Assembly (NCBI GenBank): GCA_041659005.1
Contig: JBAZZD010000002.1
Location: 25,817 to 89,816 of the forward strand
Reading direction: 5' to 3'
From: Minisyncoccota bacterium
GTDB taxonomy: Bacteria; Patescibacteriota; Minisyncoccia; UBA6257; GWB1-50-10
DNA length: 64,000 nt
The first letter of the stretch is position 1; every line of letters begins with the position of its first letter. The notes beneath the pieces are model-generated. The model saw nothing but the letters and a program-made list of their open reading frames with translations, made no database searches and was not told where the DNA came from. This document shows positions 32,557 to 36,737 of the stretch, one piece after another. A program made the translations under genes and the position numbers.

Positions 32557-33213
32557 TTACATCTTTGGTTTTTTGATAACCTGCACCACTTTTCCATTAA
32601 TGATATAGTTGTCATTTTCATGAATATAGATTGGTGGGAAATCTTGATTTGAATCAGAAATAAGAATAATTTGTTTATTTTCGTCATCTTTATAGAAACG
32701 CTTTATGTTTGCCATTCCGTCAATAATAGAAAGAACAATATCTCCATTTTTTGGACTTCGATCGGTAGTATCCACAATTACATAATCGCCATCCTCAATT
32801 TTTTTCTTTTCAATCATTGCCTTGTTCATACTTGGTCCTTTTACACGAATTGCAAAAAGAACATGCGAAGTTGGTCGTGGACGAATAAGCGATTCCGATA
32901 TACGAAGGAATCCTTCAATATTTTCTTCTGCAATTGCAGTTGCGGGCCCTGCGCTTGCGTATCCAAGAATTGGAATGCTTAACAAGGTTCCCTGTCCTTT
33001 ACTTGTTTTTTTACTCCAGTTATCTCGTGTGTTCTTTATAATTCCCTTTGCCTTATCAATATTTAAGAGTCCACGCTTTTCAAGTTGACCCATATGATGT
33101 TTTATTTTCTGTGGTGAGGTTTCACCGATAAACGCACCAATTTCTCGCAAAGAGAACAATGCAAGATTTTTCATTTTGGCGAGTTCTAATAATTTTTCTT
33201 GTATGGTGTGCAT
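32557..33213 (-). CDS. lexA: LexA-family transcriptional repressor (S24 peptidase)
   Basis: N-terminal wHTH; VKGPSMNKAMI (Ser nucleophile) and ...GMANIKRF (Lys) in the C-terminal S24 domain. Confidence 0.8.
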   Translation of the reverse strand: MHTIQEKLLELAKMKNLALFSLREIGAFIGETSPQKIKHHMGQLEKRGLLNIDKAKGIIKNTRDNWSKKTSKGQGTLLSIPILGYASAGPATAIAEENIEGFLRISESLIRPRPTSHVLFAIRVKGPSMNKAMIEKKKIEDGDYVIVDTTDRSPKNGDIVLSIIDGMANIKRFYKDDENKQIILISDSNQDFPPIYIHENDNYIINGKVVQVIKKPKM

Positions 33214-33294: not shown

Positions 33295-33708
33295 TTAGTC
33301 AAATAGGAAAAATGCAGCAATTGTGGCACCAATCCAACTCATCGCTGACAAGGTTCCACTAAGGAATAATGGCCACTTCTCCCCTTTTGTAAGTGAGGAG
33401 AATGATTTTTGTGTTGCCACATGAGTGAGTTTTCCGATCAAGAATCCATTTCCTACAAGAATGGCGACAAACACCATTTTGATGATAAAAAATGGATTAT
33501 GTATTAAATAGTTTCGGGCGGGATAAAAAAGAAATCCACCAGTAATGATAAGTGCAATTAAACCAATCCACGTGGCGATGTGAAGACGATCTATTTTTTT
33601 ACTATCCAGTACTTTAATTTTTCCTCGAAACCACGAAAACGCATCATGGTCGGCAATCAGAATAATAATTCCTGAAAAAATAAGTGAAATAATGTGTGCA
33701 GTAAACAT
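33295..33708 (-). CDS. hypothetical membrane protein (4 TM)
   Basis: Hydrophobic profile only. Confidence 0.5.
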   Translation of the reverse strand: MFTAHIISLIFSGIIILIADHDAFSWFRGKIKVLDSKKIDRLHIATWIGLIALIITGGFLFYPARNYLIHNPFFIIKMVFVAILVGNGFLIGKLTHVATQKSFSSLTKGEKWPLFLSGTLSAMSWIGATIAAFFLFD

Positions 33709-33714
33709 AATTAA

Positions 33715-34122
33715 TTATTGTGTTGCTAATACTCCGATTTTCATTGTTTCAAGTATTGTTTCCATTTTTTCATTTCCTCCGTGTTTATCTACGAATGCCT
33801 CAGTGCCATCTGTTCCACATCCTGTGAGGATTGGATCAGTTCCTCCGGGATGTTTTGGAATAAATGCAGTAACATCGTATACATTGCCTCGGATAATAGT
33901 GTAACAACTTGTTTCTAAATTATGTTTTGCAACATCAGCAGCAGAAAATGTTTGTGATACTGCTAGTGTTGTACTTGTACCTTGCTGTGCTTTTTGATTA
34001 TTATTGATAACCGAAACTTGTTCTGGCGCTGGCGTGCTATATTGTCGTTTATTTGAAAATATATATATTCCCCCACCTATAACAGCTACCACAACAATGA
34101 CCCCTAAGACAGTTTTATTCAT
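33715..34122 (-). CDS. cytochrome b5-like heme-binding domain protein, membrane anchored
   Basis: N-terminal TM; ...KHNLETSCYTIIRGNVYDVTAFIPKHPGG... (HPGG motif). Confidence 0.7.
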   Translation of the reverse strand: MNKTVLGVIVVVAVIGGGIYIFSNKRQYSTPAPEQVSVINNNQKAQQGTSTTLAVSQTFSAADVAKHNLETSCYTIIRGNVYDVTAFIPKHPGGTDPILTGCGTDGTEAFVDKHGGNEKMETILETMKIGVLATQ

Positions 34123-34244
34123 ATATTATATTATACAATTTTGGTGGTCTGTTTATTTCAAAAAACCTTGAACTACTTCATGAAAAAACTACTGCAACCT
34201 CCGGCGTCATTACTGAAGAAATTATTAAAGAGTGCAAGAAGATT

Positions 34245-34276
34245 AAATAAAAATTTCCCCGCGATATGCGGGGATT
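34245..34276 (-). terminator. intrinsic terminator
   Basis: tccccgc-gatat-gcgggga flanked by A/T runs. Confidence 0.55.
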
Positions 34277-34612
34277 TTAATCAAGAAGGTTAAGTGCGAC
34301 AGCGATAATTGCCCATGCTTCTTTTTCTTCAATTTTTAATTTTTCTTGAAGTTTGTTGGCAAGAGAGATATAGAGAAAATCTCTATATTGAGATTGAAGA
34401 ACTTGAAGATTTGGACTATTTATCAGCGTTTCAACAGAAATATTATTATGTTTTGCCACAAGACTATTAATATCCGTCTGGTTACTTGAAAGCTTATCAT
34501 CAAGATCTTTTTCTATTTCTTTGAACGTCTCTTCCATTTTTTTGTCTGGAACCTTTTTTGAAACAGAAACAAGAGCTTCGATTAATGCAAATTTTGAATA
34601 TTGGAGTTTCAT
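34277..34612 (-). CDS. hypothetical protein
   Basis: 111-aa ORF bounded by a terminator. Confidence 0.45.
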   Translation of the reverse strand: MKLQYSKFALIEALVSVSKKVPDKKMEETFKEIEKDLDDKLSSNQTDINSLVAKHNNISVETLINSPNLQVLQSQYRDFLYISLANKLQEKLKIEEKEAWAIIAVALNLLD

Positions 34613-34984
34613 TTTTTCTCCTTTTTAATTGTGAAAGAATAAAACAACAATATCGCTTTTGGGCGGTATTAGCAAGGTTTACTCCAAAATTCCTATTTTT
34701 ATATGAAATCTTCATACAATATAAATTCAACTCAAAAAGGAAATGAAAAAAATAATCCACAGCAAACTCAACGCCTTGGGCGCCTCAAACAGTGCTGCGG
34801 ATTATATTTTCAAGTTTCCCTTTTTCGTGAATTTATTTATTGTATTCCGACGTACGTATAAAAACAGGAATTCTTTCGTCTGGGCGTATATTGCGAACTC
34901 AGCACCCGAGGTGCTTCAAACAACGCTATAGATTATGTTTTTTTTAATCTTCTTCTCTTCACAATTTATACAGCGCACTCCAAA

Positions 34985-35002
34985 CCTGCCTGCGCAGGCA
35001 GG
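34985..35002. repeat. GC-rich perfect palindrome CCTGCCTGCGCAGGCAGG (dispersed repeat copy)
   Basis: Identical 18-mer to 790-807. Confidence 0.7.
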
Positions 35003-35042
35003 CGTATGCATAAAAGAGTGATTTTTTTGTCTAGGTGTTTTA

Positions 35043-35438
35043 TTACCAGTTGAGTACGGTCACGGTAACTTGAAGAATGGTTGCGAAATAGACCCATGCA
35101 AGATATGGGAAGTTTACTATCGCTACCCAACGAGCTCGTGGCCAAATTACTTTCATTGCCCACACGAGAGTTCCAAGGACTAAAAGGATATCAATAGTGG
35201 CAAGGATATTACTTTTTAATCCAAATTGAATTGGGGTGAATGCAATATTAAAAATCGCATTCAAAAAAAATGGCAAAAATATTCCTGTCGCATATTGTTT
35301 CTTTGTATATTTTATTAATACATATCCAAATGAAACAATGATGATAAGATACAATACCATCCACACTGGACCAAAAATCCACGCGGGCGGAGCCCATGAT
35401 GGTTTTAACAATTCACTATAGTATGCATAGTTTTCCAT
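35043..35438 (-). CDS. tspO: tryptophan-rich sensory protein TspO/MBR
   Basis: LKPSWAPPAWIFGPVWMVLY motif; five TM helices. Confidence 0.85.
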   Translation of the reverse strand: MENYAYYSELLKPSWAPPAWIFGPVWMVLYLIIIVSFGYVLIKYTKKQYATGIFLPFFLNAIFNIAFTPIQFGLKSNILATIDILLVLGTLVWAMKVIWPRARWVAIVNFPYLAWVYFATILQVTVTVLNW

Positions 35439-35538
35439 TGATTTTATTATAGACGATTTGCCGAATCATAAACCTTGACTAATCAACTATTTGCTGTTAT
35501 CCTATATTTATCATTAACAATTTCAGTGGAGAAGAAAA

Positions 35539-36030
35539 ATGAATGTTGATAAACTCATTCAAGAAATTTCCGGACTTGTCGGAAAAGTTCTTGATGTTGA
35601 ACACATCAAGAAAGAAGGACGAACCGGAGTTTTTATTCACATTTCGGACAAGAACACAAAGGGTTTGATCGTTGCGCAAGCATTTGGGGTACTTACACCG
35701 GAAAAGTACAAAAAATATTCCCTTTTTGCAAATAAAAAGGCATATTGGTTGAATAACAATCCCAACGCACTTTCAACTGTTGAAAGCAATGGAGATGTCC
35801 CTGGTGGAGGTGTTTCGGGAGAAAACTATATTGTCACCGTTTCGGGACTTAACCCAAAAGACGATTCGGCGCTTGCCATCTTAATCCTCTCATTATTGGA
35901 AAAAGAAGAAAGATGCATCTTTCGAAGAATCCAATGTGTTGAAAAGGCGGGATGTAGAAACGAAATAAATGCTTTTATTTTTCATATAGTAAATAAAGCA
36001 TTTGCAGGATTAAAAGAACCGCGCACATAG
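35539..36030 (+). CDS. hypothetical protein, paralog 1 of a tandem pair
   Basis: Shares HIK..K.GVFI...DK.T..LI....FG.LT...WL..NP.A.S..ESNGDV.GG.SG...V.VSGL...D.SALA.L.L..LE...KA.C.NE with the next gene; RBS GGAGAAG present. Confidence 0.55.
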   Translation: MNVDKLIQEISGLVGKVLDVEHIKKEGRTGVFIHISDKNTKGLIVAQAFGVLTPEKYKKYSLFANKKAYWLNNNPNALSTVESNGDVPGGGVSGENYIVTVSGLNPKDDSALAILILSLLEKEERCIFRRIQCVEKAGCRNEINAFIFHIVNKAFAGLKEPRT

Positions 36031-36040
36031 CGCGGCTTTA
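36010..36040 (+). terminator. intrinsic terminator between the paralogs
   Basis: ccgcgc-acata-gcgcgg followed by ctttatatttt. Confidence 0.5.
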
Positions 36041-36134
36041 TATTTTAGGATTTTGGTAATAGTTCTTGTTCTTGACTATTGGGAGTTTTACTCATATTTT
36101 AGATATATCATTAACATTTATTTCGGAGAACGTG

Positions 36135-36647
36135 ATGGGACGGAAAAAGAAATTTAAGCAAATATCCGAAAGGATAAAAGATCTTATTACCTGCGTGCTG
36201 GAGATGGAACATATCAAAGACTTAAAGAAAGCAGGAGTGTTTATCCAAGTCTTTGATAAAAAAACTGGAAATCTTCTTATCGGGAAAACCTTTGGATTAT
36301 TGACTTCGGATATGTGTGACGAATATTCAGGTGTTTCACAAAAAAAAGCAGTTTGGTTATACCTAAATCCACGGGCAACCTCGTCTTTAGAAAGTAATGG
36401 AGATGTTTCCCCGGGAGCAATTTCAGGAAGACGGCACGTTGTTTCGGTTTCTGCAGGATTGGAGTCTGGAGATGAATCTGCGCTTGCGGTTCTCGTTCTT
36501 GCCGAACTTGAATGCCGGAGAAAAGATTTTTATCGCCGTAATATCTATATTGCGAAGGCGGAATGCAAGAATGAGTTGTTTGATATTCTTGATTTTCTCG
36601 AAACAGTGTTTGACTGGAATCTCTTTCCCAATTTTGATATTGATTAA
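36135..36647 (+). CDS. hypothetical protein, paralog 2 of the tandem pair
   Basis: Track ORF 36066..36647; in-frame ATG at 36135 preceded by GGAGAA; conserved ESNGDV core. Confidence 0.55.
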   Translation: MGRKKKFKQISERIKDLITCVLEMEHIKDLKKAGVFIQVFDKKTGNLLIGKTFGLLTSDMCDEYSGVSQKKAVWLYLNPRATSSLESNGDVSPGAISGRRHVVSVSAGLESGDESALAVLVLAELECRRKDFYRRNIYIAKAECKNELFDILDFLETVFDWNLFPNFDID

Positions 36648-36675
36648 GACCGTGCAATGCACGGTTTTTATTTGA
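36648..36675 (+). terminator. intrinsic terminator
   Basis: accgtgca-atg-cacggt followed by ttttatttg. Confidence 0.6.
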
Positions 36676-36737
36676 CAATAATTGTGTAATAATGCATAAT
36701 CATCGTAGAATTATTTAACATAACGATAGGAGAAAAA

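Follow-up and report, generated by a model that had tools for sequence, protein, structure and literature searches.

A tandem pair of paralogous genes divergent from tspO in a Minisyncoccota bacterium encodes predicted GlcG-fold proteins that may form a ligand-binding hetero-oligomer

The window analysed here is a 64,000-nucleotide stretch of contig JBAZZD010000002.1 (assembly GCA_041659005.1) from a Minisyncoccota bacterium, and it carries two adjacent genes of the same strand, which we call A and B (163 and 170 amino acids, aa; together, the array), directly next to a divergently oriented gene for a TspO membrane protein. Structure prediction makes it quite likely that the family of A and B belongs to the GlcG-like fold, as a group placed outside the Pfam family PF03928. 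The composite reading that we tentatively favour, at somewhat less than an even chance, is that A and B form a cytoplasmic, hetero-oligomeric GlcG-fold sensor or binder of a ligand that is tied to TspO; the fold and the hetero-oligomer are much firmer parts of this reading than the ligand. To our knowledge, bacterial TspO has no agreed function and no defined protein partners, and within the widespread DUF336/GlcG group we know of biochemistry for only three bacterial members. Genomes of Patescibacteria are, in addition, rich in unannotated families. The locus joins these three questions through its predicted fold, a natural 'Rosetta-stone' fusion, an invariant cysteine and a fixed tspO junction with a leader box, and the linkage to TspO together with the fusion makes the question of what bacterial TspO works with testable with small proteins.

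Both open reading frames (ORFs) were confirmed on the forward strand, at the lengths given by a first-pass annotation of the same DNA. The BLASTP alignment of A with B spans 140 residues with a single gap, at 44% identity and 65% positives (E 5e-39). The collinear motifs that had been listed for the pair (HIK, GVFI, FG.LT, ESNGDV, SG, V.VSGL, D.SALA and KA.C.NE) all lay inside this alignment and were invariant across six close homologs; by this comparison, A and B are paralogs. The ratio of nonsynonymous to synonymous substitution rates (dN/dS) against the ortholog pair of a related locus (L001; related loci and proteins are numbered with the prefixes L and P) was 0.17 for A and 0.15 for B, so that both are real genes constrained by purifying selection. 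For B, the mechanical ORF list offered an alternative form of 193 aa starting at TTG 36066, and database gene calls with an upstream TTG or GTG start also exist (P0005, 191 aa; region 36066-36134). The extended start is probably an annotation artefact, and the 170-aa form was preferred because the 193-aa form would take in the promoter-like site and the leader box of B itself. Inspection of A and B revealed neither a signal peptide nor a hydrophobic segment, so the proteins should be cytoplasmic, and they are small and probably soluble.

Protein A was 100% identical to a hypothetical protein from a metagenome-assembled genome of Candidatus Paceibacterota. Word-indexed searches returned three close homologs for A and two for B, the B orthologs being 85-91% identical. 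With a profile of six sequences, an exhaustive hidden Markov model (HMM) search that covered 1.84 billion cluster representatives brought together 70 proteins at E <=1e-3, nine of them at E <=1e-10; two proteins from this search, P0019 and P0024, are repetitive and were treated as spurious. All family members carrying organism names come from Patescibacteria, that is, the candidate phyla radiation (CPR), and belong to Paceibacterota, Parcubacteria and Moraniibacteriota. The earlier statement that the pair fits no known family was borne out as far as families defined by sequence are concerned: searches of A and B against Pfam, NCBIfam, PADLOC, PHROGs and PDB sequences were empty or returned noise (no PADLOC family; PHROG matches at E 0.03 or worse), no Pfam match was found in any of 83 aligned family members, and PDB sequence searches with phmmer and hmmsearch, using gene A alone or a 69-member family profile, gave no match. 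The CinA C-terminal domain and Asp23, two housekeeping families to which such proteins might have been assigned, matched neither A nor B in Pfam or NCBIfam at E up to 10. One distant member, P0073 (265 aa), carries an N-terminal extension of about 125 aa that begins with MPF and has no Pfam match; a tautomerase-like Pro-1 domain was suspected there, an assumption that was not supported.

We then turned to structure. A model built with AlphaFold2 from the single sequence was unusable (predicted local distance difference test, pLDDT, 47) and was replaced by a model built on the 83-sequence alignment (pLDDT 96.2, predicted template modelling score 0.91). This model comprises a helix at residues 3-18 (with a further one at 21-25), strands at 30-37 and 43-50, helices at 54-73 and 80-83, strands at 91-93 and 97-102 and a helix at 106-120, followed by two additional C-terminal helices at 124-137 and 140-156. 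Up to these helices, the model shows the GlcG-like, profilin-type three-layer a/b/a order a-b(2)-a(3)-b(2)-a, a topology described for the C-terminal domain of PduO (PduOC), OrfY and HbpS (PMC4923194). A Foldseek comparison of the model with the PDB, one of the checks that the first-pass annotation had proposed, returned DUF336 structures throughout ranks 1-19, with probabilities of 0.8-1.0, template modelling (TM) scores up to 0.59 and identities of 13-20%. The top structures were Ybr137w (4clc), 4nkp, HbpS (3fpw, 4bmw), EfgA (6bws), OrfY (2a2l) and heme-bound PduOC (5cx7), and EfgA gave the best TM-score (6bws_A; TMt 0.59, root-mean-square deviation 3.7, 142 columns). Past rank 19, most Roadblock, MglB and GAF proteins had probabilities no higher than 0.3; among the GAF structures 4g3k came out best, with a probability of 0.10 and a TM-score of 0.24, and Pfam GAF models matched neither A, B nor the 83-member family. 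In the viral library BFVD, searched as a background control, nothing exceeded a probability of 0.44 or a TM-score of 0.34 on the query. The model argues that A and B are probably distant relatives of the GlcG/DUF336 proteins and closest in shape to EfgA. The earlier guess that tandem divergent duplicates of this kind are sensors or ligand-binding proteins fits the predicted fold, whose characterised members are small-molecule sensors or binders; the other half of that guess, an immunity-type function, fared poorly, as discussed below.

Conservation points to two candidate ligand sites. Over the 83 family members, K67, S102 and G103 are conserved at a level of at least 90%, and an acidic residue is found at position 108/109. 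The register given by hhalign places GG90/91, S102-G103 and D109 opposite the DUF336 motifs GG, GVSG and Asp, and the aligned S and D motifs hold S114 and D121 of EfgA. These two residues and K57 have been implicated in the binding of formaldehyde by EfgA (PMC8153426); the offset between PDB-chain and native numbering was checked against the published list of EfgA mutants. K67 would be the counterpart of K57, judging from its position on the long helix alone. The predicted canonical pocket is intact in the sequences of A and B: both have the long-helix Lys, the Ser-Gly that closes strand 4 and the acidic residue that opens the last core helix. The second candidate site lies on the C-terminal helices. 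A subclade made up of the nine best representatives has the C-terminal extension and its 'A.C..E' motif in common, and across 18 domains of this subclade G50, G90, G94, G103, E121 and C139 are invariant, with W70, S110 and L117 present in 17 and E142 in 16 of the 18.

The array takes different forms across lineages. P0006, P0008 and P0009 (315-328 aa) are two-domain fusions of a degenerate N-terminal domain and a B-like C-terminal domain, and fusions occupy the A/B position, head-to-head with tspO, in three lineages (L008, L012 and L013); in L008 the fusion is followed by GrpB. A different pair, a B/P0010-like gene and then a P0012-like gene, stands at the same position in L017 and L073. In L011 a third single-domain paralog follows the fusion, and in L010 P0010 is followed by the start of a P0012-like gene. 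The genome of L017 holds a further copy, P0011, about 10 kb away; the gene that follows P0011 in L016 was considered and is not a paralog. Compared with the positional counterparts in L008, L012 and L013, A is 27-29% and B 34-41% identical (B being aligned with the fused C-terminal domains), whereas for the neighbouring genes the identities are 75-81% (TspO), 64-82% (a 137-aa membrane protein), 58-68% (a cytochrome b5-like protein) and 77% (GrpB). The array has therefore diverged several-fold, about three times, faster than the genes that surround it, while a small set of residues has been kept invariant. The distant, single-copy members were seen at three loci only, in translation or cell-envelope settings (Table 1) that recall the link of EfgA to translation and def.

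Within this Paceibacterota lineage, the array keeps a constant position next to tspO. Neighbourhood conservation, a further check that had been suggested, was examined in the six independent lineages with usable context (the window group, comprising the window, L001-3 and L072; L008/9; L012; L013-15/L074; L017; L073), and the array or the fusion lies divergently next to TspO in all six. The flank on the other side is variable: a phosphodiesterase (PDE)-like gene is present in the window group only, a Na/Ca exchanger in L008, L017 and L073, and a response regulator with a VTT protein in L013. On the TspO side, the 111-aa gene adjoins TspO in L072, L073, L017 and L008 (43-55% identity by tblastn), the cytochrome b5 gene is kept near TspO in L001, L008, L013 and L072, and in these same four loci the 137-aa membrane protein is 64-88% identical. 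TspO, GrpB and a methyltransferase had been correctly named as neighbours in the first-pass annotation, and the HD phosphohydrolase also listed there is more precisely a class-I cyclic-nucleotide PDE-like protein. That annotation missed three things: TspO, not the HD gene, is the conserved partner, the pair has fused positional counterparts, and the family is CPR-wide. The whole block at 33295-35438 on the reverse strand recurs in L001, L008, L013 and L072, and partly in L017 and L073. In this bacterium, which is expected to lack respiration, the block may represent a small module for heme/porphyrin or redox functions.

Expression signals were also retained at this junction. Each gene has its own ribosome binding site (RBS), and a terminator-like hairpin followed by a T-run stands between the two genes, both as noted before. 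The -35 element and the extended -10 element of the A promoter are kept across five diverged loci, and the intergenic promoter is kept across the TspO-adjacent loci. A short leader box lies between the -10 element and the RBS and is near-identical in A and B (TATCATTAACA). In the form [AT]CATTAA[CTA]AA it recurs at this position ahead of most of the subclade genes that were examined (including L001, L008, L010-L013 and L016); the exceptions are the leader of L010_next, which has no box, and the copy of B, which ends in CAT. The box is shared by the two paralogs and by lineages with protein identities of only 25-35%. The exact pattern occurs 10 times in the window, versus 5 occurrences expected. 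The box may serve as an operator, as part of the transcription start or, in the transcript, as an RNA element; it matched no Rfam family, and a search of the tspO-A intergenic region found no inverted repeat. An Rfam match to Leu_leader at 35964-36043 on the forward strand scored 27.5 bits (E 0.007), below the gathering score of 50. It falls on the terminator hairpin of A and was rejected, since it is most likely a chance likeness of a hairpin and U-run.

Table 1. Features of the A/B locus and contexts of distant family members. Positions are those of the window, except for the last three rows, where they refer to the locus named.
Feature	Position	Strand	Evidence or remarks
137-aa membrane protein, paired with the cytochrome b5 gene	33295..33708	-	Weak DUF2214 match; four hydrophobic segments by eye
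Membrane-anchored cytochrome b5-like heme-binding domain protein	33715..34122	-	PF00173, E 5e-21
111-aa protein downstream of TspO	34277..34612	-	No assigned function; conserved block
TspO/MBR membrane protein	35043..35438	-	PF03073, E 7.6e-27; divergent to the array
Promoter-like site of A	35475..35503	+	TTGACT, 17 nt, TATCCT with upstream TG; consensus scan
Leader box of A, TATCATTAACAAT	35509..35521	+	Between the -10 element and the RBS; pattern search
RBS (GGAG) of A	35528-35531	+	Sequence
Gene A	35539..36030	+	163 aa; predicted GlcG/DUF336-fold protein with two extra C-terminal helices; ORF, model, dN/dS
Terminator-like hairpin and T-run after A	36019..36045 (hairpin 36019-36035)	+	-12.3 kcal/mol, z -3.1; stop codon of A in the loop
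Promoter-like site of B	36072..36100	+	TTGACT, 17 nt, TATTTT; architecture as in the A promoter
Leader box of B, TATCATTAACATT	36106..36118	+	Pattern search
RBS (GGAG) of B	36125-36129	+	Sequence
Gene B	36135..36647	+	170 aa from ATG 36135; paralog of A
Terminator-like hairpin (ACCGTGC/GCACGGT) and T-run after B	36649..36673 (hairpin ~36649-36665)	+	-13.7 kcal/mol, z -5.1
Compact class-I-PDE-like HD phosphohydrolase, 221 aa	36738..37403	+	PF00233, 27.6 bits versus a cut-off of 24.8
Context of distant member, L005	6001-6525		S6/SSB/S18/EF-P/GyrB/L25/Pth
Context of distant member, L006	6001-6540		mraZ-rsmH-PBP-murE
Context of distant member, L007	6001-6510		def-fmt-S1

Putting fold, fusion and neighbourhood side by side, we propose that A and B would be two diverged subunits of one cytoplasmic hetero-oligomer with the GlcG/DUF336 (profilin-like) fold. 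An A:B assembly is suggested because known DUF336 proteins are obligate oligomers, from dimers to tetramers, octamers or decamers, and because the two domains are fused in three lineages; the characterised DUF336 oligomers are built from beta-sheet-extending dimers (PMC4923194). Such a complex might bind a small ligand, with the canonical Lys/Ser/Asp pocket and a subclade site around Cys139, Glu121 and Glu142 on the extra helices as the alternative locations, and would sense or buffer whatever TspO handles. The ligand would preferably be a tetrapyrrole (heme or porphyrin), or else a related redox or electrophile signal. A tetrapyrrole is favoured because HbpS and PduOC bind heme or cobalamin (PMC8153426, PMC4923194), because the conserved ligands of TspO are porphyrins and because a cytochrome b5 gene lies in the conserved block. 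Porphyrins are described as conserved TspO ligands, and loss of tspO is reported to perturb the porphyrin/iron balance in fermenting B. cereus (PMC10077581, PMC13185565). A more specific form of this proposal, which we regard as distinctly unlikely, makes A/B a dedicated cytoplasmic partner of TspO that senses or receives porphyrin or heme through a new Cys-containing site on the C-terminal helices, with fusion, turnover and diversification tracking changing ligands or hosts. The host bacteria are presumably unable to make heme. If this were the case, a TspO partner module would be defined genetically for the first time in bacteria, and a CPR-specific dark-matter family would receive a function.

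Comparison with characterised proteins of this fold shows what the proposal borrows from each. HbpS of Streptomyces reticuli (3fpv, 3fpw, 4bmw) and the 'extracellular heme-binding protein' 4nkp belong to the same fold family, were among the top Foldseek matches and are tetrapyrrole or iron sensors or binders, in keeping with the heme/porphyrin flavour of the A/B neighbourhood. HbpS, however, is a secreted homo-octamer with SenS/SenR, a two-component system, as the recipient of its signal, whereas A and B have, by inspection, no signal peptide and no kinase partner nearby. The C-terminal domain of PduO from Salmonella (5cx7), also in the Foldseek top list, has the GlcG-like fold and binds heme at a dimer interface, so that two subunits jointly form the tetrapyrrole site (PMC4923194). 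In contrast to A and B, it is fused to an adenosyltransferase and forms a homo-octamer, and its heme ligand His18, which is not conserved even within DUF336 (PMC4923194), has no demonstrable equivalent in A or B. GlcG/OrfY (PF03928; 2a2l) resembles A and B in size, fold and the motif order Lys-Ala helix, GG, V-S-G and Asp, but the PF03928 HMM recognises 0 of the 83 members and the profile-profile similarity is not significant. A and B differ from all characterised DUF336 members in their extra Cys-bearing helices, their hetero-paralog or fused form, the restriction of named members to Patescibacteria, the TspO junction and their rapid diversification.

Several results weigh against the proposed TspO-linked sensor and have to be set beside it. 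As regards the fold, PF03928 (Haem_degrading) matched neither A, B nor the 83 relatives even at E up to 10, an HMM of DUF336 made from four PDB sequences gave family members 4.7 bits or less, and hhalign of the family against the DUF336 profile, which contained only four PDB-derived sequences, reached a probability of 1.5% (E 0.033). Sequence-level membership in DUF336 is therefore not demonstrable, and because the PF03928 test failed we did not file A and B as GlcG/DUF336 members; since sequence methods give no link to DUF336, the fold call rests on one predicted model and Foldseek, whose E-values were just 6e-3 with TM-scores of 0.35-0.59. As regards the ligand, several of the fused or paralogous domains of the subclade have other residues in place of K67 and S102, and no heme-binding motif could be demonstrated in A or B. 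His22 was considered as the equivalent of PduOC His18 and not adopted, as it lies about 8 residues before strand 1, compared with an estimated 15-20 or so for His18; heme binding in DUF336 uses non-conserved residues (PMC4923194). As regards TspO, a search of GTDB species representatives with the TspO of the window gave 55 loci, and the family was nearby in L017 only, where TspO is 82% identical; the other 54 loci, including CPR ones at <=66% identity, have no family member nearby. TspO proteins of array-bearing genomes are 75-90% identical and form one lineage, and because the association is restricted to this lineage, the adjacency is explainable by vertical synteny. The distant family members, finally, are single-copy and not near TspO.

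Four alternatives were weighed. The first keeps the fold and changes the ligand: A and B would be an EfgA-like sensor of an electrophile, aldehyde or oxidant, with a reactive Lys/Ser/Asp pocket and/or a reactive Cys139 thiol, and with an output on translation or stress. We consider it rather unlikely. EfgA of Methylorubrum extorquens (6bws, 6c0z), the cytoplasmic member of DUF336, resembles A and B in being cytoplasmic, single-domain and about 150 aa long, and candidate counterparts of its pocket residues K57, S114 and D121 are kept in both A and B; an invariant Cys beside a variable Lys and Ser in the subclade suggests thiol chemistry, the distant single-copy members lie among translation and cell-envelope genes (L005, L006 and L007), and TspO has also been tied to oxidative or redox stress (PMC10077581, PMC13185565). 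However, EfgA has no detectable sequence similarity to A and B, is a homotetramer encoded by a lone gene, and its homologs are almost exclusive to methylotrophs (PMC8153426), whereas A and B have the two extra helices with an invariant Cys, the hetero-paralog or fused form and the TspO context. No gene that generates or detoxifies aldehydes adjoins the array, just three distant contexts have been seen, and the conserved TspO/cytochrome b5 context favours porphyrin or heme over an electrophile.

The second alternative, equally rather unlikely in our judgement, is that adjacency to TspO is inherited synteny without function, that the family has some generic role in the CPR, and that the tandem, fused and reshuffled forms reflect neutral turnover of paralogs. 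The array-bearing genomes do form one tight TspO clade (75-90% identity, as above), the unrelated neighbours GrpB and the LexA-like S24 peptidase are syntenic too, and distant members of the family sit in unrelated contexts. Against neutral inheritance stands the contrast between the two flanks: the right one has been rearranged in several lineages, while the head-to-head TspO junction and its promoter and leader box have been kept. The array also diverges about three times faster than its neighbours and yet keeps invariant Cys, Glu and Gly positions, a pattern that speaks against drift and for a constraint that is specific and changes. Even if the TspO link proved to be synteny only, a GlcG-like fold annotation for about 70 orphan protein clusters would remain.

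The PDE-like gene downstream of B gives rise to a third, very unlikely alternative, in which A and B would regulate the enzyme in trans, like GAF-A and GAF-B domains split off into separate subunits, with a nucleotide or other ligand gating hydrolysis. The gene scores above the Pfam PDEase_I cut-off, the catalytic cores of PDE10A and PDE5 match its product at E 9e-6 over residues 26-90, and the metal-site motifs YHNxxH, HDxxH and D(A)DMS can be seen in this protein, which is only about two-thirds as long as a PDE catalytic domain. In the window, two profilin-like modules lie directly upstream of this class-I-PDE-like gene, an order that resembles the GAF-GAF-PDE architecture of eukaryotic PDE2/5/6/10/11, the Foldseek list includes GAF and Roadblock folds further down, and the arrangement is kept in L001-3 and L072. 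On the other hand, the gene is missing beside the array in four of the six lineages (L008, L013, L017 and L073) and so is no conserved neighbour; A, B and the PDE-like gene appear as separate transcription units, with a terminator after B and a strong promoter-like site for the PDE-like gene itself at 36672-36700 (TTGACA-17-CATAAT, near-consensus, 11/12); and DUF336 structures reach a probability of about 1.0, whereas GAF structures stay at 0.1 or below. A role in conflict, be it as an immunity or a toxin-antitoxin module, which rapid divergence, tandem duplication and paralog turnover could call to mind, is highly improbable, given that no PADLOC defence-model or PHROG family, toxin-like partner or viral structural relative was found, that mobile-element genes are not alongside and the chromosomal position is stable, that dN/dS between close orthologs is about 0.16 and that the fold is typical of sensors and binders.

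A search for literature linking TspO to Patescibacteria found none, and a review of TSPO binding partners contained nothing on gene neighbourhoods. Mentions of DUF336 in a paper on HD-GYP proteins proved to be DUF3369 and DUF3391 and were set aside as irrelevant. About 2 kb from the array, at 32557-33213 on the reverse strand, the window encodes a LexA-like repressor (Peptidase_S24 with a weak LexA DNA-binding domain), a gene that is syntenic in L001, L008 and L017.

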